DNA of 64,000 nucleotides from Alphaproteobacteria bacterium (GCA_965243375.1 CBDEUT010000009.1:896401-960400), one strand, 5' to 3'. Positions 4,555 through 44,311 are shown, counted from the first letter of the stretch. Program-made: numbers and translations. The notes: generated from the sequence alone by a model not told the origin.

Positions 4555-4700
4555 CCGCGCAGCTTGCCGTTTCACCGGGGAACGGTGTCCATCCCACCGT
4601 CTCCCCGGTGTCGCCAAGACGAGCTATCCGGCCCCGTTTACGGCGGGGCCGGAAGCATGTTCACCTTGCGTTACCTCATTGATTCTGCTAGAGGAATCCC

Positions 4701-6329: not shown

Positions 6330-6394
6330 CGGCGCGGCGCTTACAGATAAACGGCGACGTCGCCCAACAGTTGATGCGTTGACGGGAGAGGAAC

Positions 6395-7717
6395 ATGAAG
6401 CGTCCCAAGATCAAGCGGCGCGAGCGCGACACGATCATCCAGGCCTTGCGTGCAGGCGTCGTCCCCAAGCTGGGCCTGCGGCACATCCAAGTCGGGCGGG
6501 CGCGAGAGACCACCGAAATGGTCCGAGATGTCGAACGGATCGGCGAAGGGGGCGCCTCCATCCGCTTCGTGATTGGAGAGTATGGATCGGGCAAGACGTT
6601 CTTCCTCAATCTCGTTCGGCTCATTGCCTTGGAGAAGGGACTGGTCGTGCTTTCGGCGGACTTGGCGCCCGACCGACGCATCCATGCCACGGGCGGGCAA
6701 GCCCGTTCGCTGTATGCGGAGCTCACGCGAAATGCCTCGACCCGCACGAAACCGGAGGGCGGCGCGCTCGCCAGCGTGGTGGAGAGGTTCGTCACCCAGG
6801 CGGTCCGCGAGGCGGACGCCTCCGAGCGAACAGCGGATGCCGTGATCCGAGACAAGCTGGACCATCTCGAGGAGCTGACGGGCGGCTACGACTTCGCCAC
6901 GGTCATCGCCAGGTATTGGGAAGGGCACGAGACGGGTGACGACGAGCTGAAGTCGAATGCGCTGCGCTGGCTCAGGGCCGAGTTCGCGACCAGGACGGAT
7001 GCGCGCAAGGCGCTCGGCGTTCGCACGATCATCGATGACTCCAGCGTCTACGATCACCTGAAGCTCCTGTCCGCATTCGTGCGCGAGGCGGGCTACGGCG
7101 GATTGCTGGTGGAGCTCGATGAACTCGTAAACCTCTACAAGCTCACCAACAGCCAGGCACGTAACGCCAACTATGAACAGATTCTCCGCATCCTGAACGA
7201 CGTTCTCCAAGGCAGTGCCGCGCATCTCGGCTTCATGCTGGGCGGCACCCCGGAGTTTCTCATGGACACGCGGCGGGGCCTCTACAGCTACGAAGCGCTC
7301 CAGTCGCGGCTCGCGGAGAACACCTTCGCACGAGACGGACTGGTCGATCTGTCCGGGCCGGTCATGCGTCTTTCCGGCCTGACGAAGGAAGATTTGTTCG
7401 TGCTGTTGGCCAACGTCAGGCGCGTGTTTCTGGGAGACGAGACGGGTGCCGCGCCGGACGATGCCCTGAAGGCGTTCATGGCGCACTGCTCGCAGCGGAT
7501 CGGCGACGTCTATTTCCGGACGCCGAGAACCACGGTCACCGCCTTCGTGAACATGCTCTCGGTCATCGAGCAGAACCCGGGGACGGCATGGCAGGACCTC
7601 GTCGACGATGTTGAGATCGTGGCGGATGGCGGCGATGACTTGAGCGACATCATCGACAACGAGGCAGCGAAGAGTGGGCAGGAGGCTGACGATGACCTCA
7701 CCAGCTTCCGCCTCTGA
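6395..7717 (+). CDS. P-loop ATPase (Shango SngB-like)
   Basis: 440 aa; Walker A GEYGSGKT near residue 60, Walker B-like LLVELDEL; RBS GGGAGAGG 5 nt upstream; 12 nt downstream of the reconstructed pre-insertion stop of the TerB gene. Confidence 0.8.
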   Translation: MKRPKIKRRERDTIIQALRAGVVPKLGLRHIQVGRARETTEMVRDVERIGEGGASIRFVIGEYGSGKTFFLNLVRLIALEKGLVVLSADLAPDRRIHATGGQARSLYAELTRNASTRTKPEGGALASVVERFVTQAVREADASERTADAVIRDKLDHLEELTGGYDFATVIARYWEGHETGDDELKSNALRWLRAEFATRTDARKALGVRTIIDDSSVYDHLKLLSAFVREAGYGGLLVELDELVNLYKLTNSQARNANYEQILRILNDVLQGSAAHLGFMLGGTPEFLMDTRRGLYSYEALQSRLAENTFARDGLVDLSGPVMRLSGLTKEDLFVLLANVRRVFLGDETGAAPDDALKAFMAHCSQRIGDVYFRTPRTTVTAFVNMLSVIEQNPGTAWQDLVDDVEIVADGGDDLSDIIDNEAAKSGQEADDDLTSFRL

Positions 7718-9944
7718 TCAGCAATCCCGAGCCTTCGATCTTCTGGCGGAGCCGATCCGACGCTGGATCTGGCAAATGAAGTGGACTGCGCTTCGAGACA
7801 TTCAGGAGCGCGCGATCCCTTACCTGATCGACGGCGATGACGACCTCATCATTGCGGCCGCGACCGCCGGGGGAAAGACGGAGGCGGCGTTCCTGCCGCT
7901 GATTTCGAGGGCCCTCACGACCGGAAGTGGCGAGGGCTTCGACCTGGTCTATGTCGGGCCCCTTCGGGCGCTCATCAACGATCAGTTCTGGCGGCTAGAA
8001 GAGCTGTGTGCGACGCTGGAGATACCGGTCCACCCCTGGCACGGCGACATCTCGCAGGCCGTGAAGGCGCGCGCCAGAAAGAACCCGCGCGGCGTCCTGC
8101 TCATCACGCCCGAATCGCTCGAAGCGATGTTCCTCCTGCGCAGCGCGGAGATACCCCGCCTCTTCGCGGACACCCAAGCCATCGTGATCGACGAGCTTCA
8201 TGCTTTGCTGGATTCCGAGCGGGGCGTTCATCTGCGCTCCCTGCTGACCCGGCTCGAACTCGCGGTCGGCCGTCGCATTCGGCGCGTCGGGTTGTCGGCG
8301 ACTCTGGGAGACATGGCGCTGGCCAATGCCTATCTGCGCCCTGAGGCGCCGGAGAAGGTGGGGCAACTGGTCAGCTCCGACGAGCAGGAGCTGCGTGTTC
8401 AGTTGCGCGCCTACATCGCCGGCCGACGCACAGAGCACCCTAGCCCAGAAGAAGCCGAGTCGAACGGTGCCGATATGCAGGATTCATCTGCGGCACGGGC
8501 CGTTGGCGAGCATATCTTCGATAAGCTTCGGGGAAGCAACAATCTTGTCTTTGCAGGGTCCCGGGGCAACGTCGAGCTCTATGCCGATCTCTTGCGCCGA
8601 ATGTGCGAGGAGAGACGTCTTCCGAACGAGTTCTTCCCTCATCACGCCAGCCTGTCTAGGGAGCATCGCGGCTTCGTGGAGAAGCGCCTCAAGGACGGCA
8701 ATCTGCCGGTCACTTCAATTTGCACGTCCACCCTGGAACTCGGGATCGACATCGGCAACGTGGTATGCGTCGGACAAATTGGCGCGCCATGGTCGGTCGC
8801 GGGACTCAAGCAAAGACTGGGGCGGTCAGGGCGGCGGGACGGCCAACCTTCCGTGCTCCGCATGTACGCCATTGAACCGGAGACCGACGCCGACTCGCAT
8901 CCCATCGACACGTTTCACCTAGGCCTGGTGCGCTCGATTGCCATGGTCGAACTGTTGGTCGAGAGTTGGTGCGAGCCGCCGAGACGGGAGGCGCTCCATC
9001 TCTCGACGTTGACACACCAGATCCTATCTGTGATCGCGGAACGGGGCGGGGCATCGGCGAAGCGGCTCTTTTCGACTCTTTGTGACCGCGGTCCGTTTCG
9101 GACAGTCGATTCAGCGCTATTTGATCGGCTCTTACGCCAGCTTGGCGACCCCGACATCGCACTAATCGAACAGGCGTCGGACGGTACGCTTCTGCTTGGC
9201 CGCGAAGGCGAGCGTGTCGTCGAGCACTACAGTTTCTACGCGGTCTTTCATACACCGCAGGAATACCGCGTCGTCCACGATACGAAGACCCTCGGAACGA
9301 TCCCCGTCGATATGCCGCTGACCCCGGACATGACAATCATATTCGTCGGTCGACGGTGGCGCGTTCTCGAGGTGCACGACAAGGAAAGAGTTATCGAAGT
9401 GACGCCCGACTATGCCGGCAAGCCGCCGCGCTTCGGAGGTGATGCAGGCGACGTACATGAGGTCGTCGTACGCCGCATGCGCGACGTGCTGCTCGCCGAT
9501 ATCGTGCCGCCCTATCTCGACAATACGGCTGCAGAAGTCCTTCGCTTTGCCAGAGCCGCCTATCGGCGGTCCGGCCTCGATGACGTACCCATTCGACCGC
9601 TCGGCGAAGATCGACATCTTCTCGCCCTATGGACTGGAACAGTCGGCACAGTTTCTTTGGCGCTTGTGCTGACGTGTCTTGGCTATCGTGTCGGCACTTA
9701 CGATGGCATTCTGGATGTGACATCACCGCGTTCGTGCACGAGAGGCCTCTCTTCACAGCTTGGGGACATCGCAACTGGAGAACTCGACTTGCCCGACCTC
9801 ATACGAGGCCGAGCAGGCGCACTGATCAACGAGCAGTTCCACCACTATCTCGGAGACGATCTATTGCTTTCAGATGCACTATCGAGGCGGTTGGACCTGA
9901 ATGCAGTACCAGGGATCGCCCAAAGATTGTGCTCACGGTTGTGA
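7692..9944 (+). CDS. DEAD/DEAH-box SF2 helicase (Shango SngC-like)
   Basis: Motif I AATAGGKTEAAF, Ia VGPLRALINDQ, II VIDELHAL, III SAT, VI QRLGRSGRR; start chosen at the ATG at 7692 with a perfect AGGAGG RBS 7 nt upstream (the ORF track starts at 7674); overlaps the upstream ATPase gene by 26 nt. Confidence 0.8.
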   Translation: MTSPASASDQQSRAFDLLAEPIRRWIWQMKWTALRDIQERAIPYLIDGDDDLIIAAATAGGKTEAAFLPLISRALTTGSGEGFDLVYVGPLRALINDQFWRLEELCATLEIPVHPWHGDISQAVKARARKNPRGVLLITPESLEAMFLLRSAEIPRLFADTQAIVIDELHALLDSERGVHLRSLLTRLELAVGRRIRRVGLSATLGDMALANAYLRPEAPEKVGQLVSSDEQELRVQLRAYIAGRRTEHPSPEEAESNGADMQDSSAARAVGEHIFDKLRGSNNLVFAGSRGNVELYADLLRRMCEERRLPNEFFPHHASLSREHRGFVEKRLKDGNLPVTSICTSTLELGIDIGNVVCVGQIGAPWSVAGLKQRLGRSGRRDGQPSVLRMYAIEPETDADSHPIDTFHLGLVRSIAMVELLVESWCEPPRREALHLSTLTHQILSVIAERGGASAKRLFSTLCDRGPFRTVDSALFDRLLRQLGDPDIALIEQASDGTLLLGREGERVVEHYSFYAVFHTPQEYRVVHDTKTLGTIPVDMPLTPDMTIIFVGRRWRVLEVHDKERVIEVTPDYAGKPPRFGGDAGDVHEVVVRRMRDVLLADIVPPYLDNTAAEVLRFARAAYRRSGLDDVPIRPLGEDRHLLALWTGTVGTVSLALVLTCLGYRVGTYDGILDVTSPRSCTRGLSSQLGDIATGELDLPDLIRGRAGALINEQFHHYLGDDLLLSDALSRRLDLNAVPGIAQRLCSRL

Positions 9945-10249: not shown

Positions 10250-10640
10250 CACGGAGACAAGACGGTTACCGGCGGCGCGGCGCATTTCCTTCAAGCTCGT
10301 CCCGGCGCTTCTCTGTTTGCGCAGCAAGCCGGGGCCCGGCAACCCCTGGGTGTTTCCCGGCCGCGTGCTCGGTACCCGTCTGCGCACACTGAACGCGTCG
10401 TGGCAGGTCGTTCGCAAGGAGGCCGGGCTCGAAGACGTTCGCCTGCATGACTTGCGCCACTCCTTCGCCTCGCGGGCGCTCGCCCTCGGGGAGAGTCTGC
10501 CGATGATCGGGAAACTGCTCGGTCACACGAAGGTGCAGACGACCGCGCGCTACGCACACCTTGGGAGGCACTCAGTGAAGGTCGCTGCCGTTCGGATACC
10601 CGCTTACCGAGTTGCAGCACTTACAGACTCAGCCTTTGCA
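10250..10640 (+). pseudogene. 3' fragment of a tyrosine integrase gene (remnant)
   Basis: Encodes only the C-terminal catalytic segment ...PWVFPG...LEDVRLHDLRHSFASRALALGESLPMIGKLLGHTKVQTTARYAHL, about 70% identical to the intact integrase at 12764-13945, then diverges; no N-terminal domain. Confidence 0.6.
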
Positions 10641-10874
10641 CAACGACAGCAACTGGGCAGAGTCACGCGGGCGCTCCGCCGCGGGGAGTCCCCATTCTGC
10701 ACCGAGCTGCGGAATGTTTCCTGACCGGCCACATCCATAGACTACCGGACACTCCCAACAGGAACACCACCGCAGCAATCCATCCGTTGTCACGCTTCCA
10801 CTTGGACCTAGTACCATTGACTCGATGGAATTACTATACGCGTAGAAGCCATTCAGATCAGGTACGGTTCCGCT

Positions 10875-12763: not shown

Positions 12764-13945
12764 CTACAGGATGTCGCTGGCAATGCTGTCTGCGATCCGC
12801 TCCGCCGCCTCGTGAACCGAGTCCTGCGCAAGATGGGCGTAGCGCGCCGTCGTCTCGATATCGTGGTGTCCAAGCAGCTTGCCGATCACCGGAAGGGTCT
12901 CGCCGAGTGCGAGCGCCCGGGAGGCAAAGCTGTGTCGGAGGTCGTGCAGCCGCACGTCCTCCAGATCGGCACCGGCCCGGACAATGCGCCAGGCACGGTC
13001 GAGGCCGCCGCTGAGGCGTCCGTCGCGGTCGCCGCCCGGAAACACCCAGGGGCCGTCGTTCCGACGCGGCAGCGTCTCCAGAAGCCCCACCGCCGCCGAC
13101 GGAAGCTGGACCGTGCGGGGACCAGACTTGGCGTCGGCGAGGCGGAGCTCGCCGGCTTCGGGGTCGACGTCCGTCCAGCGCAACGTGAGGATCTCGCTCT
13201 TGCGGCAGCCGGTCAGCATCAGCAGGTGGATCGCCGTCACGGCAAGCGGCGAAACGGCGCCGCTGTCGAGGGCCTCGTGCAGCGCCTGTCCGAGGCGGTC
13301 GAACTCGGCATCGGTCAGGAAGCGCTCGCGGGAGCGCTCGGGATACTTCTCCACCGAGCGGCAGGGATTGAAGCCCTCGGGCGCCAGGCCCCAGCCCTCG
13401 GCCAGACGGTACATGTGCGACAGGACCTTGACCGCCCGGTTCGCCGTGACCGGGCGGTCCGACAGTTCGCGGTGCAGCTCGACGACGTGGCTTCGTTCCA
13501 CCGCCTCCAGGGGCAGCCTGCCGAGGGCCGGCAGGATGTGGCGGCGGAGCACACCACTGACGCTCGTCTGCGTCCTCGGTTTCAGCCTCGCCTCGACATG
13601 CTCCTCCAGGTAGCGCTCGGCAAGATCGGCCACGGTGGGCCCGCCGTTGAGCCTGGCGGCGAGCGGCAGGGGCACCGGGTCCTCGCACGCCCTGATGCGC
13701 GCGATGATGAGCGCCGCCCGCTGGCGGGCCTCCTCGGCATTGAGCACGCCGTGGCGGCCGACCGTCACCCGCTTCGGCAGCCTGTTGCCCGTCCGCTCCC
13801 TGGCCTGGGCGACGTAGACCTTGCCGCCGGACGGATAGACCCGGATCCCGAAGCCGGTCAGGTCCCGGTCCCAGAACACGGTGTCGCGGTCGACTTCCAG
13901 CGCTGCCACGGTGCGGTTGGAGAGGGTCTTCTTCTGCACTGCCAT
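12764..13945 (-). CDS. int: tyrosine recombinase / phage-type integrase (copy 1)
   Basis: 393 aa from the ATG with GAGGAGG RBS (MAVQKKTLSNRTVAALEV...); N-terminal arm-binding (DUF4102-like) region, C-terminal HDLRHSFAS...TTARYAHL with catalytic Tyr. Confidence 0.9.
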   Translation of the reverse strand: MAVQKKTLSNRTVAALEVDRDTVFWDRDLTGFGIRVYPSGGKVYVAQARERTGNRLPKRVTVGRHGVLNAEEARQRAALIIARIRACEDPVPLPLAARLNGGPTVADLAERYLEEHVEARLKPRTQTSVSGVLRRHILPALGRLPLEAVERSHVVELHRELSDRPVTANRAVKVLSHMYRLAEGWGLAPEGFNPCRSVEKYPERSRERFLTDAEFDRLGQALHEALDSGAVSPLAVTAIHLLMLTGCRKSEILTLRWTDVDPEAGELRLADAKSGPRTVQLPSAAVGLLETLPRRNDGPWVFPGGDRDGRLSGGLDRAWRIVRAGADLEDVRLHDLRHSFASRALALGETLPVIGKLLGHHDIETTARYAHLAQDSVHEAAERIADSIASDIL

Positions 13946-13956
13946 GTTGCGCCTCC

Positions 13957-15141
13957 TCACGCCGCCTCGGCACGGCCGCGCAGGACGTGGGCGGCGATGC
14001 TGTCGCCGGTCCGCGCGGCGGCGGCCTTCTCCGCGTCGCGCACCAGGTGGGCGTACTTGGCGGTGGTGCCAACCGTGACATGACCCAGCAGCCTACCGAT
14101 CACCGGCAGGCCCTCGCCAAGGGCCAGCGCCCGCGAGGCGTAGCTATGGCGCAGGTCGTGGACGCGCACATCGTGGAGTCCGGTCTCTCTCCTGATCCTC
14201 CGCCAGTACGAGGAAAGACAGGCCAGTCGGGAACCGGGCTTCGTGCCCCGCAGTACCCAGGGAACTCCCTCGGCCCGCTTGATGCCGTCCAGCACTTTCA
14301 GCACCGGCCCGGTCAGCGGCACCATGCGCGGCCCGGTCTTCGAATCGCGCAAGCGCAAGACGCGCGCCGTGCGGTCGACGTCGTCCCATTTCAGGGTGAG
14401 GATCTCGTCCGTGCGGCAGCCGGTGAGCATCAGCAGGCGGATCGCGGCGATCGCCGAGGGCACCATCGAGCCCTCGGATTCGAACATCTTCAGCGCCGTC
14501 CCCAGCCGCCGGAACTCCTCCGGAGTCAGGAAGCGCTCGCGGGACTTCCCTCGGTAATGGCGGACATGCCGGCTCGGCTTGCGGCCGGGCGGTACCATCC
14601 CCCAGCTCTCGCCCAACGACAAGATCTTCGACAGCACCCACATCGCCTGGTTGGCCGCCGCCGGCGTCGCCCGCAGCTTGTGGTGGAGCGCCGTGAGGTC
14701 TTCGGACCCGACATCCTCGAGCGCCTTCGTCCCCAGGGCCGGGAGGATATGGTTCCGGATCGACACCCGGTAGTTCCTGGCTGTGCTCGGCTTGCAGCGC
14801 GTCTCGACGTAGTTCTTGAGCACGAGTTCGGACAGGTCGGCGACGGTGGGCGGTGGCGGCGCTTTCGACGGCTTGGGGTCCTCGCCCCGCTTGATGCGGT
14901 CGATGACGACGGCGGCCTCGCGCCGGCGGTCCTCGACGGTCTTGGTGCCGACCCGTCCGAGCGTCACCCGCTTCAGGCCCGCCGGTCCCCTGGACTGAAC
15001 GATGTAGAGCTTGCGTCCGGTGGCATGCACCCGCACGCCGAAGCCGGCAAGGTCGCGGTCCCAGAAGATCGTGTCCTTGCCGCCGGCCTTGAGCCCGTCC
15101 ACAATCCGCTTGGTCAGTCTGAGGGTGCTGCGCTTCGGCAT
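13957..15141 (-). CDS. int: tyrosine recombinase / phage-type integrase (copy 2, tandem paralogue)
   Basis: 394 aa from MPKRSTLRLTKRIVDG (RBS GGGGAGAGAAACC); same domain layout, VHDLRHSYASRAL...TAKYAHL; stop 12 nt upstream of the copy-1 start. Confidence 0.9.
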   Translation of the reverse strand: MPKRSTLRLTKRIVDGLKAGGKDTIFWDRDLAGFGVRVHATGRKLYIVQSRGPAGLKRVTLGRVGTKTVEDRRREAAVVIDRIKRGEDPKPSKAPPPPTVADLSELVLKNYVETRCKPSTARNYRVSIRNHILPALGTKALEDVGSEDLTALHHKLRATPAAANQAMWVLSKILSLGESWGMVPPGRKPSRHVRHYRGKSRERFLTPEEFRRLGTALKMFESEGSMVPSAIAAIRLLMLTGCRTDEILTLKWDDVDRTARVLRLRDSKTGPRMVPLTGPVLKVLDGIKRAEGVPWVLRGTKPGSRLACLSSYWRRIRRETGLHDVRVHDLRHSYASRALALGEGLPVIGRLLGHVTVGTTAKYAHLVRDAEKAAAARTGDSIAAHVLRGRAEAA

Positions 15142-15264
15142 GGTTTCTCTCCCCGAAGGCGTTCGTCCAAAGGATGGCGAAGATGAGGAAGCCGATGGAA
15201 ACTCCGGGCTCCATCTCTCCACCCCTGGAGCCGCTGGCCTCTTCCTCCCTTTCTATCACCGCGT

Positions 15265-15420
15265 GAGAAAGCGTTCGGTCACGCAGTGATGAGAGTGGTG
15301 GATTCAACGATTGAGTGTTCGCTTCCAGTCCTTGCGGAGGGGCCGCAACCAGACGTCCTTTTTCGGCTGGGCTCGCTTCGTATGCCTGTCATAGCGTCCT
15401 CTTCCCTGGGTGGTGCCGAC
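15265..15420 (+). repeat. left 156-bp terminal inverted repeat
   Basis: GAGAAAGCGTTCGGTCACGCAGTGATGAGAGTGGTGGATTCAACG...GGTGGTGCCGAC; direct comparison with the reverse complement of 18862-19017. Confidence 0.85.
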
Positions 15421-15505
15421 GCAGTGATGGAATGGGCTGAGGTCATTTTCGGCACCCTCAACAAGACACTGGTAACGCCAACGACGATTCGATATCGTCG
15501 CGCGC

Positions 15506-18100
15506 ATGGCGATGCGCGACGAGGATTTCGGGGCGATCCCGACGCTGACCGAGGCGGACGGCGGGCTCTGGTCGCCGCCCATGGCGACGCCGGAGCCGCG
15601 CGACTGGCGGTCTCTGTACGAGCAGGCGCAGGCGCGAGCGGAGACGGAGCGGGCTCGGGCGGACGCAGCGGAAGCGCGCGTCGCAGAGTTGCTTGTGGCG
15701 GAGAGGACTGCCCGTTCCCGAGCGGGCCAACTGAACACACAACTCGACAAGAACCGGAACAAGCTCAAGGCGGCCAACGAGGAGGTGAAGGAGGTCCGGC
15801 GCGCGGCCAAGGACGCGCTGTTCCACCAGTCGGAAGCAGCGCGGCTGGAGAAGCTGCTTTCGGAATCCGGTGTCGATACGCGCAAGCGCAGCACGATCGT
15901 GTCGCTGCGCATGGAAGTCTTCGAACTTCGCGAAGCCTTGAAGACGCCGAAGCCCGGCGACGCCGCGATCGAGGAACTGCGCGGGGAAGTCGATACCCTG
16001 ACCCGGGAGAACGCCCGGCTGAACAAGGCGCTGGAGCGGTCGCAGGGGCAGAACGACGAGATCGCGGCGCTGCGCAGGAAGGTCGAGGCGCTCCGTCGCC
16101 GGTTGAAACGAGCGGCAAAGCCTTCGCCGGCTGGCAGAGCGAGCGCCCAGCTTCGCAAGGCGCTGGAACGCGCACGCAAGCAGAAGGACACGATCAGGGC
16201 GTTGCGCGGCGAAGTCGGCACGCTCAGCCGGGAGACCCGTCGGCTGAACCGGGAGGCCCGTCGGCTGCGCCGCCAGTTGGAACCGTTGCCGGACCTCAAG
16301 AAGACTGCCCGCAAGATGACCGCCGAGGTCGGTTTTTTGCGCCAGTGTCTGGCCGCCTTCTGCGACCAGAGGGACCGCATCCAGGTGCTGGAGAACCGCA
16401 TCTTCCATCTGAACGTGGCCGTGAGGACGGCGGCCATCAAGAACGAGAAGCTGGAGGCCGAGCTTGCCGAGCGTCCCCTGCTGTCCGCGATCTTCAAGGT
16501 AGTGCGCGCTCGGAACAGGACTATCGAATCGCTGCACGAGGAGATCGCCCGGCAGCGCAAGGCGAACGGCCGGCAGGACAAGAAGATCGCCCGGCTGCGC
16601 GAGACGAACGCTGCACTGGGCAAGAAGATAAAGGCGCTTCGGGCTCTGACCGCGAGCCTGGAAGGCCGGATCGTCCAACTCCGCTCGTCCAGGGCGGTCC
16701 TGTCGAAGGCCGTCTTCGGGGGCAAGAGCGAGAAGCAGGACAAGCCGCGCTCGGAGCGCAAGCGCGGCCAGCAGCGCGGCGCGCCCGGCCACGGCCGCAC
16801 CCCGCGGCCCGCGCTCAAGGAGAAGGAGGAACGGCGGGAGCCGCCGCCGGACGCGCTGATCTGCTCGTGCTGCGGCAAGCCCTATATCGCCAACGGCGAG
16901 AATGCCTCGTCGGTCATCGAGATCGCGGTCAAGGCCCATATCCGCAGGATCGTGCGCCCGCGCTACCGCCGGAGCTGCGAGTGCGCGTCCTCGGCGCTGG
17001 AGGCGATCGCGCCCCCGCCGGCTCGGCTGTTCCCCAGGACGCCCTACGGGGTCAGCGTCTGGGCGCGCATCCTCTACGAGCGCTTCGCCTGCCACAGGCC
17101 CCTGCGCCGGGTTGCGGCATGGATGGCGGACCAGGGACTGCCGATCGCGCCGGGGACGATGGCGAGCAGCGTGCGCCGCTTCCTGCCGCTGTTCGCGCCG
17201 CTCGCCGAGGCGATCCTCGCCCACCAGAACGGGATGGCGGTGCGCCACGGAGACGAGACCGGCTGGCGCATCCAGGCGCTGGGCGAGACCGGCGGTTCGC
17301 GGCGCGCGTGGTTGTGGATCTCGGTCGGCAAGGATGCCGTCTATTACCGCATCGACCCCTCGCGCAGCGCCGAGGCCGCGATGAAGCTGTTCGGTTCGGT
17401 CAAGGGCACGGTGTTCCTGGTCTGCGACCGCTACGTCGCCTACGTGAAGATGGCGCGCGAGCTCGACGGCAAGGTGATCCTGTGCTGGTGCTGGATCCAC
17501 CAGAGGCGCGACTTCATCGAGTGCGCCGCCGGCCAGGTGAAGCTGAGGCAATGGTGCGAGGGATGGATCGAGCGGTTCGCGTCGGTCTTCCGACTGAACA
17601 AGGAGCGGCTGAAGCATTACGATCCCGCTCTCGCTCTCGAACGCCAGTCACCGGCGTTCGACGCGGCACATGCCCCGCTGAAGAAGGCCGTCGAGGATCT
17701 GTTCGTACAGGGCAAAGCGGAGCTGGCCGGGCTGCCGGACAAGGCGCGCCAGGGCAAGGCGCTGCGCTCGCTGCTCAAGCATCGCGAGGGGCTGAGCGTC
17801 TTCGTCGACAATCCCCAGGTCCCCATGGACAACAACCTCCCGGAGCGCGAGTTCCGGAAGGCCGTTATCGGGCGCCGGTTATGCTTCGGTTCGGACAGCG
17901 AGGACGGCGCCGACCTCACGTCGACGATGTACTCGGTCTTCGGCACGCTCTCGATGAACGGCATCGTCGTCCTGCGCTGGCTGGAGGCGTGGCTCGAAGC
18001 CTGCGCGGAGAACGGTGGCCAGCCACCGGACGACCTGTCGCCGTGGCTGCCCTGGACGATGACCGAGGAGCGCAGGCGCGAGTTCATGACGCCGGAATGA
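15506..18100 (+). CDS. IS66-family transposase (single-ORF type) with about 430-aa N-terminal coiled coil
   Basis: 864 aa; long heptad-like repeats (LRGEVDTLTRENARLNKALER... / LRGEVGTLSRETRRLNREARRL...); CSCCGKP...RRSCECA zinc finger; GDETGWRI catalytic region alignable to DETTVPV of the IS66 TnpC at 4701-6329. Confidence 0.8.
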   Translation: MAMRDEDFGAIPTLTEADGGLWSPPMATPEPRDWRSLYEQAQARAETERARADAAEARVAELLVAERTARSRAGQLNTQLDKNRNKLKAANEEVKEVRRAAKDALFHQSEAARLEKLLSESGVDTRKRSTIVSLRMEVFELREALKTPKPGDAAIEELRGEVDTLTRENARLNKALERSQGQNDEIAALRRKVEALRRRLKRAAKPSPAGRASAQLRKALERARKQKDTIRALRGEVGTLSRETRRLNREARRLRRQLEPLPDLKKTARKMTAEVGFLRQCLAAFCDQRDRIQVLENRIFHLNVAVRTAAIKNEKLEAELAERPLLSAIFKVVRARNRTIESLHEEIARQRKANGRQDKKIARLRETNAALGKKIKALRALTASLEGRIVQLRSSRAVLSKAVFGGKSEKQDKPRSERKRGQQRGAPGHGRTPRPALKEKEERREPPPDALICSCCGKPYIANGENASSVIEIAVKAHIRRIVRPRYRRSCECASSALEAIAPPPARLFPRTPYGVSVWARILYERFACHRPLRRVAAWMADQGLPIAPGTMASSVRRFLPLFAPLAEAILAHQNGMAVRHGDETGWRIQALGETGGSRRAWLWISVGKDAVYYRIDPSRSAEAAMKLFGSVKGTVFLVCDRYVAYVKMARELDGKVILCWCWIHQRRDFIECAAGQVKLRQWCEGWIERFASVFRLNKERLKHYDPALALERQSPAFDAAHAPLKKAVEDLFVQGKAELAGLPDKARQGKALRSLLKHREGLSVFVDNPQVPMDNNLPEREFRKAVIGRRLCFGSDSEDGADLTSTMYSVFGTLSMNGIVVLRWLEAWLEACAENGGQPPDDLSPWLPWTMTEERRREFMTPE

Positions 18101-18978
18101 CCGGCGTCGTCGAGTGCCGCTATTACGGGCGCGACTTCACCGCCGACGAGATGGCGCTGCTGCGCGCCCTGATCGCCGCCGATCCGCCGCCGACCCGCGC
18201 CAACCTGGCGAGGGAGTTCTGCCGGCGTACCCGCTGGCTCAAGCCCGACGGCGGCCTCAAGGACATGATGGCCAAGGTGACCATGCTCGCCATGCACCGC
18301 GACGGCGTGATCGAGCTGCCGCCGCCGAGGGGCAAACAGGGCCGGCCCAAGCCCATCGTCTTCGGACCCGACACCGAGCCGCCGCTGTTCCCCGCGCCGA
18401 CCGCCCTCGACGAGGTTCGGCCCCTCGACTTCCGCACCGTCGTGCGCAACACCCGCGAAGGGAAGCTCTGGAACGAGTTCGTCGCCCGCTATCACTATCT
18501 CGGATACAAGCCCCTGGTCGGCGCCCAGATGCGCTACGCCGTCCATGATCGGAACGGCTGGCCGCTGGCCATGCTCGGCTTCTCCACCGCCGCCTGGAAG
18601 CTCGCCCCGCGCGACGACTTCATCGGATGGACGCCCGAGCTGCGCGAGAAGAACCTGCCGCTGGTGGTCGACAATCCGCGCTTCCTGATCCTGCCGTGGA
18701 TCGAGATCCCCAACCTCGGCTCGCACATCCTTGCCATCGTGCGTCGGCGCCTGCCCGCCGACTGGACCGAGCGCTACAACACCACGCCCGTGCTCATCGA
18801 GACCTTCGTCGAGACCCCGCGCTACACCGGCGCCGTCTACAAGGCCTCGGGCTGGACGCGGGTCGGCACCACCCAGGGAAGAGGACGCCATGACAGGCAT
18901 ACGAAGCGAGCCCAGCCGAAAAAGGACGTCTGGTTGCGGCCCCTCCGCAAGGACTGGAAGCGAACACTCAATCGTTGA
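18097..18978 (+). CDS. DUF4338-like accessory protein, translationally coupled to the transposase
   Basis: 294 aa; ATG overlaps the transposase stop (ATGA at 18097-18100); ARYHYLGYKPLVGAQMRYAVHD...NPRFLILPWIE... resembles DUF4338 (the DruA domain) from memory; C-terminus runs into the right TIR. Confidence 0.6.
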   Translation: MTGVVECRYYGRDFTADEMALLRALIAADPPPTRANLAREFCRRTRWLKPDGGLKDMMAKVTMLAMHRDGVIELPPPRGKQGRPKPIVFGPDTEPPLFPAPTALDEVRPLDFRTVVRNTREGKLWNEFVARYHYLGYKPLVGAQMRYAVHDRNGWPLAMLGFSTAAWKLAPRDDFIGWTPELREKNLPLVVDNPRFLILPWIEIPNLGSHILAIVRRRLPADWTERYNTTPVLIETFVETPRYTGAVYKASGWTRVGTTQGRGRHDRHTKRAQPKKDVWLRPLRKDWKRTLNR

Positions 18979-19017
18979 ATCCACCACTCTCATCACTGCG
19001 TGACCGAACGCTTTCTC
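18862..19017 (-). repeat. right 156-bp terminal inverted repeat (carries the last about 39 codons of the DUF4338-like gene)
   Basis: Reverse complement matches 15265-15420. Confidence 0.85.
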
Positions 19018-19199
19018 CCGTTCGACGCACCCTCCGAAAATTGCCGCGAATTCCAGTCATCAAACCGTATGCGAGCGGCATCAAATCGGGGTCGATTGAA
19101 GGCGATGTCTGGCGGCAAGTCAAGGGCCGCGAAACCGGGGAGGATGTAAAATCGTCAACGATTACAACTGTCTATCATGCTCCCGGCGTCAAACGGCGG

Positions 19200-20453: not shown

Positions 20454-20553
20454 AGGAGGGCCTGGAGAAGACGAGCGGGAAGGGGCTGGAGAGAGCGTTC
20501 TCCGGTCCCGCCGCTCGACCATCGTCATCAACCAGACCTGAAGGAGCATCGTG

Positions 20554-21033
20554 ATGAGCTTCGGAATGAACCGCGTCGAACTGATCGGCCGCCTCGGCGC
20601 CGACGTCACCGTCAACCACCTGATGAGCGGGGGCCGCGTCGCCAATTTGAGCATCGCGACCGACGAGAGCTACCGGAATCGCCAGACCGGCGAGATCGTG
20701 GACAAGACCGAGTGGCACCGCGCCGTCACCTTCCAGGACGGCCTGATCGACATGCTGGAGCGGCACGCGAAGAAGGGCCGCCTGGTCCACCTCGAGGGCA
20801 AGCTCCAGACCCGGCGCTGGAAGAAGGACGGCGAGGACTCGGACCGCTTCTCGACCGAGATCATCGTCGTGCCCGGCCACAAGGTGCAATTCCTCGACAA
20901 GCCTGCCGGCGCGAACGGGAACGGCGTCCAGGCCGCGGCCGAGCCCGCCCAGTCGGAGAACGGCGAGGCGATGCCGGCCGGCGGCGCTCCGGCGCAGGGC
21001 GACGACCCGGACGAGGACCCGCTTCCGTTCTGA
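20554..21033 (+). CDS. ssb: single-stranded DNA-binding protein
   Basis: MSFGMNRVELIGRLGADVTV...TEWHRAVTFQ...KGRLVHLEGKLQTRRWKKDGEDSDRFSTEIIV, OB-fold SSB with acidic tail DDPDEDPLPF; AAGGAG RBS 7 nt upstream. Confidence 0.9.
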   Translation: MSFGMNRVELIGRLGADVTVNHLMSGGRVANLSIATDESYRNRQTGEIVDKTEWHRAVTFQDGLIDMLERHAKKGRLVHLEGKLQTRRWKKDGEDSDRFSTEIIVVPGHKVQFLDKPAGANGNGVQAAAEPAQSENGEAMPAGGAPAQGDDPDEDPLPF

Positions 21034-21263
21034 TTCTTGACTGTCATCCTCCCTCCCAACTCGGGCGGCCGCTCCGGCGGCTGCCCATTTCTTTTGCAGC
21101 CGGCCCGGAGTCCGTCCCCGGCCGGGCCTCGCGCCCGCGCTTCGCGCGGCGCGTCGCCCACCAGCGCCGGCAGGAGTCCGGGGTTGGCCGGTATCGGGGC
21201 GTCGCTTTCCGGACCCGAGGAGTCTGCCATGTCGAATCCCTGCCATGCCGCCGGGGCCGCGTC

Positions 21264-22208
21264 GTGAACGCGGCCGCCGTCGCCGCCGCGCTCGCAGAGC
21301 GCGCCGAGGCCGTCTGCCGCCACTACCTCCCGCACGGCCGCCGCCAGGGGCGGTACTGGGTTGCGGGCGACCTGGACGGCGCCCGCGGGCGCTCGCTCTA
21401 TGTGCGGCTCGCACCGCCCGGCACGCCGGGCAAGTGGACGGACGCAGCCGAGGGGACGCACGGCGATCTCCTCGACATCGTCCGGCACCGCACGGGCGCG
21501 CCGACGCTGCGCGCGGCGCTCGCAGAGGCGCGCGCGTTCCTCGCCTTGCCCGCTGCGCGGGCAATGGCATCGGACGCGCCCTACGACGCGACGGAAGCGG
21601 CGCGCCGCCTGTGGCGGCGCTGCCGCGCCATCGACAGGACGCATGCGGAGCGCTACCTGCTCGCACGAGGTCTCGCGCGCTGCCGCTTCGCGGCGCTGCG
21701 CTTCCACCCCGAGCTTCGCTACCGCGAAGGCTCGTCCGTCGTTCGTCTCCCGGCGCTGGTCGCCGCCGTGACCGGCAGCGACGGCCTCATCACCGGCGTG
21801 CAGCGCACCTGGCTCGATCCCCGCTCGCCCGCCAGGGCGGGTGTCGCGTCCCCGCGCAAAGCGCTGGCGCGCGTCTACGGGCACGCCGTGCTCTTCGGCC
21901 GCCCCGCCGACGTGCTCCTCGTCGGCGAGGGCATCGAGACGGTGCTGTCGGTGGTCACCGCCATCCCCGACATCACCGCCGCCGCCGCGCTCTCCGCCGG
22001 AAGCCTCGGCGCGTTCGCGCCTCCGCCCGGCGTCGCGCGGCTGGTCATCGCACGCGACAACGACCCGGAGGGGGAGCGGGCGACGGACCGCCTCGCCCGG
22101 CGCTGCGCGCGGGCAAGCGTCGCCGCACTCGTCATCGTCCCCGAAGGCGGGGACTTCAACGACGACCTCGCTGCACTCGGCCGCGATGAGCGCGCTCTCG
22201 GTATCTGA
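21264..22208 (+). CDS. toprim-domain protein (primase-like, ICE/plasmid type)
   Basis: GTG start inferred; the longer ORF start overlaps ssb in another frame; C-terminal Toprim motifs VLLVGEGIETVLSV...ARDNDPEGERA...GGDFNDDL. Confidence 0.65.
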   Translation: MNAAAVAAALAERAEAVCRHYLPHGRRQGRYWVAGDLDGARGRSLYVRLAPPGTPGKWTDAAEGTHGDLLDIVRHRTGAPTLRAALAEARAFLALPAARAMASDAPYDATEAARRLWRRCRAIDRTHAERYLLARGLARCRFAALRFHPELRYREGSSVVRLPALVAAVTGSDGLITGVQRTWLDPRSPARAGVASPRKALARVYGHAVLFGRPADVLLVGEGIETVLSVVTAIPDITAAAALSAGSLGAFAPPPGVARLVIARDNDPEGERATDRLARRCARASVAALVIVPEGGDFNDDLAALGRDERALGI

Positions 22209-22440: not shown

Positions 22441-22500
22441 TACCCGTTACCGTTACCCTGCCTCCCTAGGGGTTCGAGGCGGTAACGGTTTTCGGTAACG
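22441..22500 (+). repeat. inverted CGTTACC/GGTAACG repeat cluster between convergent genes
   Basis: CCGTTACCGTTACC...GGTAACGGTTTTCGGTAACG; could be a bidirectional terminator or protein-binding site. Confidence 0.3.
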
Positions 22501-23491
22501 CGTCGTTGCGGCCCGCGTGGTTGACGGCGGCCGGCGGCGCCGCGTTTTCGGCGGCGAGGCGGTAACCGCCCTGGGGTGCGCGTTCGACGCGCCCGGCGCG
22601 GACGAGCTTGCTCAGCGCTTCGGCGACGGTTGCGGGCCGGGTTGCCGCGCGCTCGCGGATCTGGCGCTGCGAGAGCGGTGCATCGGCGTCGGCGAGGGCT
22701 TGGAGGATGCGCCGTTCGGGTGTTTCCGGCTCCGGCGCGGCCTCGGCCGGCACCGGCCGCCGCAAGCGCAGGGCGGGTCCCTCGCCGTCATCGGCGAGTT
22801 CGATCTCGATGTCGGCGAGGCCTGGAGCGGCGCGATGCTCGACGGTCATGACGATCTGCTTGTCGCGGCGGCGCAGATAGAGGTTGCTGTCGCCCCAGGC
22901 ATGGAGCTCGGACGACCCCCTGAGCGCCTGGCCCGGCCGGCTGGCACCGCTCTTGCGGGCATGGTGGACGAGCAGGACGGCGGTCTCGAAGCGGCGCTGG
23001 AGGTCGCGCAGGAAGCCGAGTATGGGAGCGACCTCGGCGACGGTGTTTTCATCGACGCCGTGCAGGCGGACCAGGGGGTCGAGGACCACGAGGCGTGGCG
23101 CGATGCGCTGCACGGTCTCGCGCAGACGCTGCCGGTCGTTGGCATGGTCGAGGCGCAGGATGGGAGCGTCGATGACGGCGATGTCGAGCGTCTCGAAGCT
23201 GGCGCCGGCTGCCCGGGCGATGCCCTCAAGCCGGGCGCGCACGATGTGGCCGGCGTCCTCGGCCGCGAACAGCAGGACCGGTCCGGGCTGTTTGGCGGCG
23301 AAGCGGCGCAGACAGGGAACGCCGGCGGCGACGGCCACGGCGAGGTCCAGAGCCAGGAAGGATTTGCCGCACTTGGGTTCGCCGCCGACGATGCCGACGG
23401 CTTGGCGTCCCCAGAGGCCGTCGACCAGCCACTGCTGCCGGCTCGGGCGGTCCTCAAGGTCGGCCGGGCTTCGGGTCGGGAAGCCCTTCAC
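22466..23491 (-). CDS. RepA-like AAA/RecA-fold ATPase (AAA_25-type)
   Basis: 341 aa; Walker A GGEPKCGKS, LVVLDPL Walker B, C-terminal wHTH; common in ICE/plasmid backbones. Confidence 0.75.
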   Translation of the reverse strand: MKGFPTRSPADLEDRPSRQQWLVDGLWGRQAVGIVGGEPKCGKSFLALDLAVAVAAGVPCLRRFAAKQPGPVLLFAAEDAGHIVRARLEGIARAAGASFETLDIAVIDAPILRLDHANDRQRLRETVQRIAPRLVVLDPLVRLHGVDENTVAEVAPILGFLRDLQRRFETAVLLVHHARKSGASRPGQALRGSSELHAWGDSNLYLRRRDKQIVMTVEHRAAPGLADIEIELADDGEGPALRLRRPVPAEAAPEPETPERRILQALADADAPLSQRQIRERAATRPATVAEALSKLVRAGRVERAPQGGYRLAAENAAPPAAVNHAGRNDALPKTVTASNP

Positions 23492-24321
23492 CGGCGCGCT
23501 CTCCTGGTCTTGGTGGGCTCCCCCCAGGTCTCCAGGAAGAGCTTTTCGTCGAGCACTTCACGATCCTGATCGGCGCCGGCGGCGAGCAGCGCATCGGCCA
23601 TGACGGTGAGCGTCCTGGGGTTGCCGCCGGCATGGGCGACGAGGGTGTCCTTGAGGCCGGCGGTCATCAGGGCGGGGTTGCCGGCCTCCTCCAGCAGGTG
23701 GTCGAGGAGGCGCAGTAGATCCTCGTCTTCGGGACGCGTCATGAGGAGGCGCTGGCGGATGCGGGAGTCGATGGGATGCAGCTCCGGCGTGCGCAGTTTT
23801 GCGAGCAGCCGGTTGTCACCGGCCAGCACCACGCCAAGGATGGTGCGCGAGTCGAAGTCGGTCGAGGAGAGCAGGCGCATCTCGGTCAGCACCGCGTTGG
23901 GCAGCTCCTGTGCCTCGTCGACCAGCAGGAGTGGGCGCATGCGCGTGTCGTCGAGGTGGTCGAGCCAGCGCTGCCGCAGTCCCTTGATCCCATTCCAGCG
24001 ATTGTTGTGGGCCATGGTGATGGCGAAGCGGTCGGAGATCTCGTGGTAGAAGTCGGCGACGCTGGAGGACGGATGGGTGAGGACCGCGACGCTCAACCTG
24101 TCGATGCGCTCAAGGCGCTCGGCGAGCAACCGCAGCGCCACGCTCTTGCCGATGCCGGGCGGGCCGCCGATCAGGGCGAAGCCGCCCTGGCGCACCAGAT
24201 GCCGTTCGACCCTGCGGCAGAAGTTCTCGACGGCGGGTGTGGTCATCAGGCCATCGACCGGGAGGTCGGTGGAGAAGGGGTTCCACTTGAGGCCGTACAG
24301 CGTGAGCATTTCGCGGTTCAT
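23488..24321 (-). CDS. tniB: TniB/ExeA-like transposition AAA+ ATPase
   Basis: 277 aa from MNREMLTLYGLKWNPF (ExeA/TniB N-terminal signature), Walker A GGPPGIGKS, Walker B LLLVDEAQ; RBS GGGGAGACC; ATGA overlap with the upstream tniA stop. Confidence 0.8.
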   Translation of the reverse strand: MNREMLTLYGLKWNPFSTDLPVDGLMTTPAVENFCRRVERHLVRQGGFALIGGPPGIGKSVALRLLAERLERIDRLSVAVLTHPSSSVADFYHEISDRFAITMAHNNRWNGIKGLRQRWLDHLDDTRMRPLLLVDEAQELPNAVLTEMRLLSSTDFDSRTILGVVLAGDNRLLAKLRTPELHPIDSRIRQRLLMTRPEDEDLLRLLDHLLEEAGNPALMTAGLKDTLVAHAGGNPRTLTVMADALLAAGADQDREVLDEKLFLETWGEPTKTRRARR

Positions 24322-25796
24322 GAGGGGTCTCCCCGATCGTCGTCTTCGCCCGGCCCGGGGCTTTCGGCGTGAGGCAGCCAGGCCGGCGGCAGGCCCGTCG
24401 CGGCCTGGTCGTCGAGGATGCGCCTGAGCAGCGGCGCGGCTTCGCCCCCGCCGGCGCTGCCGCCGCCATCGTTGTCGCCGGGCCCGGCCGGGCGGCGCAT
24501 ACCGCCGGCATTGCCGCGCCGGTCGAGCGGGTAGAGGGTGCACAGCCGCTCGCCGCTTCGGCCGTCGACCAGATCAACGCTGGCCAGGTCCCAGCGCGCA
24601 TAGCGGATCCACAGCGTGCTCAGGTGGCGCCACGGCGCGGGAACCTGATAGCGGATGCCCTCGAGCGACACGGTTCCGTCCGAGCGCCGCAGCGTGCGCT
24701 TCACGGTGATGCGGAACGCCGCCCTGAGCTCGTCGCGGCCGAGGCAGGGCCTCGACGCATCGTCGCTGTCGAGCAGGCGCTTGAGCGGCGTGGTGCCGAG
24801 CTCGCGGTGCACCCGGCGGTGGTAGTCCTGCTCGACCCAGGCGACGGTCGCGTCGTTGAGCGTCTTCAGGGTGAGCGGCTCGACGCCTTCGAGCATGGCC
24901 ATCAGGCGGCCCTCGACCGAGGCCCACAGGACCTCCATCTTGCCATTCTGATGAGGCGCCCCCGCGAGGGTCCTGGAGTGGATGATGCCGAGCCGGTGCA
25001 GCCCCTCCTCGACCTCCCCCGCCATCATCGGCGAGCCGTTGTCGCTCATGAGCGCGCGCGGCAGGCCGCGCTTCATGAAGGCCTGGCAGAGCCCGTGGAC
25101 GAAGACCTCGGCGGTCTCCTCCAGGTACCACTGCAGGTGGCAACCCACCCGCGAGTGGTCGTCGAGGAAGCCGAGCATGATCGGCGTGCGCCAGGCGCCG
25201 GACGCGGTCAGCACCCGGCACCGGGCATGATGGAAGTCGGTGTGCCAGAGCGCATGGCTGCGCGAGACCTCGAAGCTCAGCACCTCGCGCGGCTCGACCG
25301 GCGCCCGCTCGGGTTCCCGGTCGAAGCGCCGCCGGCGGCGCTGGCGCACCAACCCGCGATTGCGCATTGCCCGGGTCAGCGTCGCGTAGGAGGGCATCGG
25401 GCCGAGCGCCGGATCGACCTCGACCAGCGCCCGCAGGTTGTCGTAATGCAGCTGCCCCGACCACGACGGATGCGCCCGGTACTGGCCGCGCAGCGCCTCG
25501 ATCAGCGCCGGCGACATCGCCCGCTCGCGGCCGGCATCGGTGCGCGGCCGGCGGCGCAGCGCCTTGACCGGATCCCGGTCCGCCGCCCGTGCCTGGTAGT
25601 ACCAGCGTTCGATCGTCGACACCGAGAAGCGCACCGGCCCCTTGCCGGACGGGTGATCCCAGTCGCGTTGCGACAGCCGCTCCAGCTCCGCCCGCAACTG
25701 CCCCGTGGGCGGCGGCGAGGCCAGCAACGGCCCGACGACCGCGAAGCGCAGCCGCGCCCACCGGTCGCGGTCGCCCCCTCCGTTGTTGCTGTCCAT
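24318..25796 (-). CDS. tniA: TniA-like DDE transposase (Mu/Tn552/Tn5053 retroviral-integrase superfamily)
   Basis: 492 aa; N-terminal RWARLRF HTH; rve core HTDFHH...SDNGS...E; Mu-transposase-like C-terminal domain. Confidence 0.8.
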   Translation of the reverse strand: MDSNNGGGDRDRWARLRFAVVGPLLASPPPTGQLRAELERLSQRDWDHPSGKGPVRFSVSTIERWYYQARAADRDPVKALRRRPRTDAGRERAMSPALIEALRGQYRAHPSWSGQLHYDNLRALVEVDPALGPMPSYATLTRAMRNRGLVRQRRRRRFDREPERAPVEPREVLSFEVSRSHALWHTDFHHARCRVLTASGAWRTPIMLGFLDDHSRVGCHLQWYLEETAEVFVHGLCQAFMKRGLPRALMSDNGSPMMAGEVEEGLHRLGIIHSRTLAGAPHQNGKMEVLWASVEGRLMAMLEGVEPLTLKTLNDATVAWVEQDYHRRVHRELGTTPLKRLLDSDDASRPCLGRDELRAAFRITVKRTLRRSDGTVSLEGIRYQVPAPWRHLSTLWIRYARWDLASVDLVDGRSGERLCTLYPLDRRGNAGGMRRPAGPGDNDGGGSAGGGEAAPLLRRILDDQAATGLPPAWLPHAESPGPGEDDDRGDPS

Positions 25797-29740: not shown

Positions 29741-29770
29741 CTTCGCCGGAGGATCCGGCGGCCCGGCGCG

Positions 29771-39854: not shown

Positions 39855-39974
39855 TGACGTGCACGCGCGAGGCCGCGGCGAGCCAGAGCGCCGCCAGCGC
39901 GATCATCACCGCCAAGCCGATATGGCGCCGACGCCTATTGCCGGCACGCAGGGCAAAGGTCCGACGCTGAGCGG

Positions 39975-44244: not shown

Positions 44245-44311
44245 GGCCGGGAATGAATCAGATTCGCAGCCTCACGGCAATTGCCAATCGCGCAGGGTGA
44301 TTCGCCCGGCC

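Follow-up and report, generated by a model that had tools for sequence, protein, structure and literature searches.

The 64,000-nucleotide stretch of DNA considered here (the window; Alphaproteobacteria bacterium, GCA_965243375.1 CBDEUT010000009.1:896401-960400) carries at 15267..19015, on the plus strand, an insertion sequence (IS) of 3749 bp whose ends were set by comparison with relatives. Coordinates are positions in the whole 64-kb window, and L-numbers denote loci retrieved with the relatives. The element holds two genes, one for an IS66-type DDE transposase of 864 amino acids (15506..18100, +) and one, whose start overlaps the transposase stop (ATGA), for a DUF4338 protein of 293 amino acids (18097..18978, +). 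It is bounded by long inverted repeats, the left one at 15267..15420 (+) and the right one at 18862..19015 (+). Next to its left end lie the remnant of a miniature inverted-repeat transposable element (MITE) and a tandem pair of tyrosine integrase genes.

The termini of the window element are GAAAGCGTTCGG, and these are common to relatives whose copies have 8-bp target duplications. A repeat search of the window returned complementary arms at 15262-15420 and 18862-19020 (159 nt, 99%). Counting inward from GAGAAAGCG (15265/19017) gives an inverted repeat of 156 nt with a single mismatch, A at 15393 versus C at 18889, and a 41-nt terminal probe has exactly two matches in the window (0 expected from shuffles). 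The 156-bp repeats with one mismatch reported in a first-pass annotation, made from the sequence alone, are therefore real by repeat search, arm alignment and probe. That annotation put the ends at 15265 and 19017; the element is indeed bounded by the arms, but the true termini are 15267 and 19015, and the two outer bases on each side are flanking DNA, complementary by chance. The right arm is made up of the final ~39 codons and the stop codon of the DUF4338 gene, followed by 37 nt of terminal DNA. The left arm is an inverted copy of this right end and contains the same codons in antisense. The one mismatch between the arms is a T-to-C change in the DUF4338 gene copy, giving Y265H; the left arm and the relatives retain the ancestral base.

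The transposase matches PF03050 (DDE_Tnp_IS66) with E 1.2e-51 and 176 bits (cut-off 23), and the NCBIfam equivalog model NF033517 (transpos_IS66) with 265.6 bits (cut-off 180). Between its zinc finger and C-terminus it shares ~28% identity with the TnpC of a canonical element in the window (BLASTP E 5e-33), with CxxC...CxC zinc-finger and DDE motifs that align; its first assignment to the IS66 family, on the zinc finger and DDE core, is upheld by these matches. The zinc-finger region (CSCC...CEC, amino acids 453-493; 16862..16984, +) was placed by alignment with the zf-IS66 region of the canonical TnpC, and the DDE catalytic core (amino acids 513-803; 17042..17914, +) by the Pfam stretch and the TnpC alignment, with D583, D641 and E780 as the candidate triad. 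The N-terminal region, amino acids ~34-403 (15605..16714, +), is predicted to be helical or coiled-coil: an AlphaFold2 model has long helices of 87, 51, 45 and 80 amino acids, the DNA has 21-nt (heptad) repeats, the protein has a 3.5-residue periodicity, and there are weak matches to coiled-coil families. A coiled coil of about 430 amino acids had been described here; the long, repetitive, helical N-terminus stands, but since it spans amino acids ~34-403 its length is ~370. The helical length differs among lineages, in which the transposases range from 632 to 864 amino acids.

Two canonical three-gene IS66 elements of the same window, at 3779-6329 (+) and 42658-45060 (-), provide an internal contrast. 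These carry tnpA (HTH_Tnp_1), tnpB (PF05717) and a tnpC with LZ, zf-IS66, DDE and IS66_C domains. The Pfam models LZ_Tnp_IS66, zf-IS66 and DDE_Tnp_IS66_C give no match to the window transposase at E 0.01, whereas both canonical copies match all three. Likewise, no tnpA or tnpB open reading frame was found between the left terminus and the transposase start, a gap of only 239 nt, whereas the canonical copies do have the PF05717 and HTH_Tnp_1 genes. A collection of 72,556 plasmids contained no transposase relative closer than ~31%, and for DUF4338 only two distant matches (40% identity). The divergence from TnpC, the missed models and the lack of a close plasmid relative together argue for a divergent, separate branch of IS66.

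The downstream protein matches PF14236 (DUF4338, now DruA in Pfam) with E 3.4e-38 and 131.9 bits. The domain had been named in the earlier annotation, and the PF14236 comparison suggested there confirms it; the overlap of the gene with the transposase stop is also correct, but the product has 293 amino acids, not 294. With 37 nt between its stop and the right terminus, the gene has its last ~39 codons inside the right arm. The gene is integral to the element, as had been claimed from this position, and it is coupled to the transposase gene and present in every intact relative. The ratio of nonsynonymous to synonymous substitution is 0.17-0.28 in comparisons with twelve lineages, the 39 codons inside the repeat included, as expected under purifying selection. 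Between lineages the DUF4338 protein is 85-93% identical in amino acids versus 62-88% for the transposase core, with only 0.2-0.5 synonymous substitutions per site. This higher conservation suggests either stronger constraint or exchange of the module between lineages. A word-indexed search retrieved more than 6,000 homologues of the window protein; in the top 120, identity is 78-93% and the length is nearly always 293 amino acids. The wider family contains 8,359 half-identity cluster representatives (E up to 1e-3). The exact window protein is not on record in public assemblies.

The relatives sampled are 78 loci from context look-ups and a one-genome-per-species scan, all reached through the DUF4338 gene. 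Most are from metagenome-assembled Alphaproteobacteria, and a few are labelled Gammaproteobacteria or Bryobacterales; up to ~14 copies occur on one chromosome. In every intact relative examined the DUF4338 gene lies directly 3' of an IS66-type transposase gene. IS66 elements are marked by repeats of 20-30 bp beginning GTAAGCG and by 8-bp direct repeats (PMC11946415). The search for further copies, proposed in the first-pass annotation as a way to define ends and duplications, located both ends of 77 unique copies. Perfect 8-bp target duplications flank 55 of these, and in 5 more the duplication matches at 7 of 8 positions. By this comparison the transposase works on functional termini of ~20 bp and inserts with an 8-bp stagger. 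The termini are G(T/A)AAGCGTTCGG-like, many exactly GTAAGCG and others GTAATCG. The window copy has terminal repeats of 154-156 bp starting GAAAGCG, versus mostly 17-25 bp starting GTAAGCG or GTAATCG in the relatives. A terminus unlike GTAAGCG had been noted for the window copy; GAAAGCG is a one-mismatch variant of it, and the exact form is found in many relatives.

Elements such as IS66, IS679 and ISRm14 have three genes, tnpA-tnpB-tnpC, and the ISBst12 group of the family has tnpC only; the window element resembles the ISBst12 group in this respect. Its branch shares with the IS66 family a transposase homologous to TnpC, termini that are GTAAGCG or differ from it by one base, 8-bp duplications and, in most copies, repeats of ~20 bp. 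It differs in that the branch lacks tnpA and tnpB, has a helical extension of 200-370 amino acids in place of the leucine-zipper region, is only ~28% identical to TnpC, and always has the downstream DUF4338 gene. Strong site preference, MITE derivatives and sublineages with long repeats are further differences. The suggestion that the transposase/DUF4338 pairing is a distinct IS66-related subgroup gains from its recurrence in every intact relative examined, at many sites and with 8-bp duplications. The window element is probably an intact copy of an autonomous IS of such a distinct IS66 branch, with a TnpC-type transposase only and a coupled, Mom-like DUF4338 gene that acts with the transposase. 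Judged by its copies and their duplications, this branch is still mobile, widespread and multicopy. If this reading holds, there is a large IS66 branch whose anatomy is its own: tnpC as the sole IS66 gene, an extended helical arm in the transposase, and an enzyme gene coupled to it. The searchable literature yielded no account of such a two-gene branch of IS66, of targeting upstream of integrases, or of DUF4338 partnering a transposase. One copy of the branch, at L005:1839-4986, has a trio of tyrosine recombinase genes inside its IS66-type transposase gene, and this looks like a recombinase-in-trio element with the IS as its target.

DUF4338 has already been called a GCN5-related N-acetyltransferase (GNAT) domain (PMC10853773). 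The AlphaFold2 model of the window protein (predicted local distance difference test 81) has a helical N-domain (amino acids ~1-75), a linker and a GNAT-fold core (amino acids ~108-267). In a Foldseek search, Mom (PDB 8bv8) ranked sixth by E-value, yet had the highest query-normalised TM-score among the top-ranked matches. Mom of phage Mu transfers glycine from Gly-tRNA to adenine in DNA, and its residues H58, Y59, R111, S124, D149, R151 and Y159 (paper numbering) are reported to be important or essential (PMC13219725). In the alignment with Mom, H133/Y134 of the DUF4338 protein correspond to H48/Y49 of the Mom record (H58/Y59 in the paper), N206/S209 to N111/S114 (N121/S124), E239 to D139 (D149) and Y248 to Y149 (Y159). 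The DUF4338 motif GAVYKASGW pairs with GVVYQASNF of Mom in hhalign. H133/Y134, S209, E239 (E or Q) and Y248 vary little or not at all among DUF4338 proteins. The DUF4338 protein differs from Mu Mom in having an extra N-terminal domain, and the two are only 13-14% identical. The GNAT fold is secure, and a specific Mom-like relationship is likely but unproven. If it holds, a Mom-like transferase with H133, Y134, S209, E239 and Y248 as candidate catalytic residues is a testable lead for a domain that is also that of the first gene of Druantia type I.

DUF4338 genes are coupled to other transposases as well. A second IS type, observed at L096-L107 (e.g., L104:172-2533 and L096:4904-7275), is 2.36 kb long with repeats of 20-24 nt and is multicopy, with many of its copies on short contigs. 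In it a DUF4338 gene of 293-298 amino acids lies upstream of a Tn5-type transposase gene (Tnp_DNA_bind, Dimer_Tnp_Tn5), with a 4-nt overlap. The full-length architecture, 40% identical over 293 amino acids, is thus found with transposases other than that of the window element, here of the Tn5/IS4 type. DUF4338 is also found in single polypeptides with DDE domains of the IS66 type (P0424, P0432), the Tn5 type (P0449, P0480, P0473), the IS630 type (DDE_3; P0503) and the ISAs1 type (L095:5034-6368). The two gene orders in which it is coupled, and its fusions to transposases of four unrelated families, argue for a protein that works with the transposase and is not cargo. It would be co-translated with the transposase and be its physical partner, a Mom-like transferase with nucleic acid or, less probably, protein as substrate; marking of element or target DNA is one possible role. 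A wider proposal can be put forward only tentatively: that DUF4338 is a Mom-like nucleic-acid-modifying transferase repeatedly recruited as a physical partner by at least four DDE families (IS66, Tn5/IS4, ISAs1 and IS630), possibly marking end or target DNA to control when and where transposition occurs, with DruA as a domesticated relative that modifies or senses DNA likewise. If so, the recurrent coupling and fusion with four transposase families amount to 'Rosetta-stone' evidence for a new transposition cofactor. A search of the literature on DUF4338 or DruA together with transposases gave nothing relevant.

A passenger role, in which the gene serves defence, anti-defence or some host benefit and has no part in transposition, seems unlikely. 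In its favour, the fold is that of an enzyme and not of a classical transposition protein, the domain is present in DruA of Druantia type I (by Pfam name and a weak PADLOC match), and conservation above that of the transposase core (85-93% versus 62-88%) is consistent with selection on the gene in its own right. Against cargo stand the translational coupling in two unrelated IS families with opposite gene orders, the fusions to four DDE families, and the presence of the gene in every intact relative although the elements are only 2.4-3.8 kb long. The score of 18 bits with the real DruA models and the lack of dru partners among the neighbours checked also tell against it. The earlier description of the protein as a DNA-binding or defence-related accessory factor was too vague: it is a GNAT-fold enzyme closest to Mom, and the domain is coupled or fused to three further transposase families.

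The relation to Druantia is one of a common domain. The link to DruA drawn at the outset is right in that PF14236 is found in both, but the window protein scores only 18 bits with DruA models and no other dru genes were seen in the neighbours checked. The PADLOC DruA match has 18.3 bits and E 2.4e-4, and covers 93 residues of a 407-position profile; the PADLOC profiles are 407-675 amino acids long, whereas the window protein has 293 and is IS-borne. The IS-borne proteins match Pfam PF14236 (132 bits) much more closely than they match the DruA-specific PADLOC models. The neighbouring genes checked (the transposase, two integrases, a zinc-ribbon reading frame, SSB and a Toprim protein) include no druB, druC or druD and no DruE helicase. 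The relatives carry the same two-gene unit in unrelated contexts. The window protein should not be annotated as a Druantia component, although its domain is common to DruA.

The site of insertion points to a preference for DNA upstream of integrase genes. To the left of the element lies a tandem P4-type pair on the minus strand. The first integrase (13957..15141, -) has Pfam Phage_integrase and Arm-DNA-bind_3 domains, with a likely start at ATG 15141 from the alignment of relatives, and the second (12764..13960, -) was identified by a profile match. Upstream of the first integrase start come 13 nt, then the MITE remnant and then the IS. Among the 77 unique copies, 22 are no more than 200 nt upstream of the start of the first integrase in a tandem P4-type pair, 14 of them within 60 nt. 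Both orientations are used, with 11 copies in each. Integrases at the occupied sites carry the Arm-DNA-bind_3 and Phage_integrase domains, and in some copies (L016, L028) the duplication includes the integrase ATG. A conserved motif of ~47 nt (GTCATCAAACCG...GGCATCAAATCGGGG) is found on the side of the IS away from the integrase; in the window it occupies 19056..19101 (+), 41 nt from the right terminus, as located by a motif hidden Markov model. This profile, built from 12 instances and run over 1.4 Mb of loci, gave 21 matches, and those beside an IS end begin ~31-43 nt from it. The distance from motif to IS in 15 unique copies is 32-43 nt, mostly 40 or 41. Two matches mark unoccupied integrase-upstream sites (L083, L084), in which 27-55 nt separate motif and ATG. 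Because the IS is flanked by the duplications and such empty, homologous sites exist, it is the IS that homes on the integrase control region; the reverse, integrases homing on the IS, was rejected.

The conserved motif is a likely landmark for target choice, to judge from its spacing. An Rfam scan of the window for the motif as a known RNA gave no match, a tRNA scan found none, and a consensus promoter scan of the element ends, outward towards the integrase, returned nothing. Insertion of the IS would be expected to alter integrase expression. In head-to-tail arrays of 2-3 copies (L043, L055, L047) the spacing is a re-duplicated 8 bp, the same target having been re-used, and such spacing would mean repeated insertion into a regenerated target. 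Arrays of identical copies at L043, L055, L052 and L047 (chromosome OZ253541.1) have spacers of 8-10 nt, CCCTTGAA, CCTTGAAA and CGTTGGCG. At L087, L090 and L093 the insertions, with duplications CGTAGGGC, CCCCTACG and CCGTAGGG, lie ~5 nt from a sequence like the 3' end of a tRNA gene, GGGTTCAACTCCGCGACCCCTCA. The latter may be the remnant of an attachment site of an integrative element.

Tn7, with TnsD and attTn7, and the 'res hunters' Tn5053 and Tn402 insert at a fixed short distance from a recognised sequence, and beside the recombinase gene of another element. The present IS is like them in this, in using either orientation and in repeated use of a site. It differs in having no TnsABC or TniABQ, but two genes with a DDE transposase of another family, and in its many copies elsewhere. 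If the reading holds, this is a new case of a mobile element homing on the control region of another, and integrase expression, and hence the mobility of the integrative conjugative element, would probably be affected.

An alternative is that the DUF4338 protein is itself the target selector, its helical (possibly winged-helix) N-domain binding the motif and recruiting the transposase as TnsD or TniQ do, with the GNAT domain having a structural role. The constant 40-41 nt between insertion and conserved motif, the compact three-helix N-domain predicted with high confidence, and the use of the same type of site by lineages whose transposase cores are ~63% and DUF4338 proteins ~86% identical are all consistent with this. 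Nevertheless, neither DUF4338 clade shows any variation in the residues that match the catalytic ones of Mom, and this speaks for catalysis. The Tn5-linked elements examined (mostly on short contigs) had no integrase gene noted next to them, and in some genomes most copies (L064-L073) are at unrelated sites without the motif. A role as selector is rated quite improbable.

Several observations weigh against the preferred reading of a mobile IS66 branch with a Mom-like partner gene and a taste for integrase-upstream DNA. For Mom, the Foldseek E-values place generic GNATs slightly ahead; hhalign of the DUF4338 family against the Mom family alignment covers 117 columns with a probability of 6% and E 0.006, a weak match; Mom R111 and R151 have no securely aligned DUF4338 partner; and the Pfam Mom model PF25680 does not match the window protein at E up to 10. 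The same model gives E 0.0078 with a Thiodictyon homologue, below the cut-off, while the DUF4338 alignment matches only 16 residues of a single Mom sequence in hhalign, and a search of PDB sequences with a profile of that alignment had no meaningful match. Fused gene calls from metagenomes can be frameshift or calling artefacts. For the target, the enrichment beside integrases, although strong, comes from loci chosen via the DUF4338 gene and is given without a genome-wide null, and many copies, e.g., most of L064-L073, are at unrelated sites that lack the motif. The branch may already have named members in ISfinder. As for the window copy, a target duplication is missing and its neighbour is a damaged MITE, so that its own mobility can only be presumed. 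Its left-end junction has no exact match in JGI metagenome contigs; a degenerate pattern of this junction has 4 matches there, none of them homologous to the element.

The long repeats that first drew attention to the element are its least important part, although they illustrate how two right ends form a working transposon. They are not characteristic of the subgroup: most lineages have repeats of 17-25 bp and the long form is secondary. Repeat length is bimodal among the relatives, 17-25 nt in most lineages versus 120-149 nt in others, and the long repeats have three types of terminus, GAAAGCG/GATAGCG (including the window copy), GTAATCC and GTAATGC. Since 24 long-repeat copies have distinct perfect 8-bp duplications, such elements transpose as they stand. 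In the short-repeat relatives L012, L011 and L054 a left repeat of ~25 nt is followed by unique DNA up to the transposase start. At the left end of the window copy the first ~16 nt of the ordinary left repeat are replaced by the inverted right-most ~154 nt, and the old left repeat resumes at 15421 (GCAGTGATGG...). Alignment with L011, L012 and L054 identifies GCAGTGATG at 15421..15429 (+) as what is left of the former short left repeat, starting near its position 17, and this remnant marks the junction between the right-end copy and the old left end. The closest long-repeat relatives (L016, L027, L065) apparently have the same junction plus a further deletion of ~25 nt. The junction in the GTAATCC and GTAATGC lineages differs from the window type; right ends were therefore copied to the left tip in at least two independent events, and a single ancestral origin of the long repeats was rejected on these grounds.

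The anatomy of the junction suggests that the right-most ~154 nt, duplicated in inverted form, took the place of the left tip (~16 nt), and nested or head-to-head copies followed by internal deletion would be a likely route to the long arms. A composite of 6085 bp at L082:2876-8960, with its own 8-bp duplication (CGCGAACC) and arms of 2349 bp, consists of a complete copy plus the right 2349 nt of an inverted second copy, joined exactly at the left terminus of the first. This arrangement and its duplication show that two right ends form a competent transposon, which makes nested or head-to-head copies with an internal deletion plausible as the source of arms of 120-156 nt. The opposite course, in which long repeats are ancestral to the group and short ones arose by repeated deletion, is very unlikely. 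On either side of the extra segment lies a copy of the 9-nt direct repeat GCAGTGATG (15284-15292 and 15421-15429), which could mediate a precise deletion back to a short repeat, and close relatives are unlike in repeat length (L012 short, L016 long). However, the GAAAGCG lineages have their junctions at other positions than the GTAATCC/GTAATGC lineages, short repeats are found in canonical IS66 and in most lineages here, and the L082 composite has the appearance of a gain in progress.

The flanks of the window copy do not match (CCGCGTGA on the left and TCCCGTTC on the right), so that there is no target duplication. About 110 nt (15155-15266) separate its left end from the region of the integrase start codon (15141). 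This DNA is the damaged MITE remnant (15155..15266), with a terminus of the family type, GAAGGCGTTCGTCC, at 15155 on the integrase side. On the IS side only the inner part of the second repeat (ACGCGGTGATAG...) is present, the last 12-14 nt being gone. MITEs of this kind are short non-coding derivatives that keep the termini and duplication length of the IS. At the same integrase-upstream hot spot, complete ones of 124-135 bp flanked by 8-bp duplications are present in L072 (124 nt, duplication CGGCTCGA), L013 (two copies of 124 nt) and L090 (135 nt, duplication GAGGCCCT). At L072 the IS and a MITE are in tandem and share a duplication. The junction of IS and MITE in the window looks, by its sequence, like such a tandem with a small deletion, and the adjoining remnant is probably why the duplication is missing. 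A local inverted duplication, or an error of assembly, enclosing two unrelated genes has next to no probability as the source of the repeats: the window copy does lack a target duplication, for which the adjacent MITE remnant probably accounts, and its exact junction has so far been seen once, but the arms stop exactly at termini common to dozens of relatives, and 24 sister copies with arms of 120-141 nt have distinct perfect 8-bp duplications at different sites. The duplications, termini and end alignments of the relatives rule out an origin without a transposon. At L013, 124-nt MITEs (3579-3702 and 6929-7052) lie on both sides of a full-length IS, a few nucleotides from its ends.

The integrase pair is at one side of an integrative conjugative element that carries SSB, Toprim, TrwC relaxase, TraH and TraU genes, and this puts the IS between the pair and the remainder of that element. 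To the right of the IS are genes for SSB (20551-21033), a DUF7146/Toprim protein (20712-22208), an AAA_25 protein (22466-23491), the TrwC relaxase (29571-33206), TraH (34312-35739) and TraU (38449-39978). Inside the conjugative element, at 23488-25796 (-), an AAA_22 ATPase (351 amino acids) adjoins an rve-type integrase-core protein (492 amino acids), and the pair looks like a transposition module of the Mu/Tn7/IS21 type. To the left of the integrases a defence-like cluster (1246-9944) is interrupted by a canonical IS66. It encodes a TerB_N/TerB/TerB_C protein (1246-3798), a BrxC/BrxD-like ATPase (6395-7717) and a DEAD-box helicase (7674-9944). At another site of the family (L011/L059, OY761822.1) the IS lies between the integrase pair and a DISARM/YprA-like defence pair, a DEAD helicase of 1285 amino acids and an MZB (DUF1998) protein. 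A tyrosine integrase fragment of 135 amino acids at 10317-10724 (+), comprising the C-terminal catalytic part, has 62-67% identity with the two intact integrases and could have been left behind by a different integrative element. Further to the right, a protein of 1932 amino acids with five Calx-beta repeats is encoded at 45919-51717 (-).

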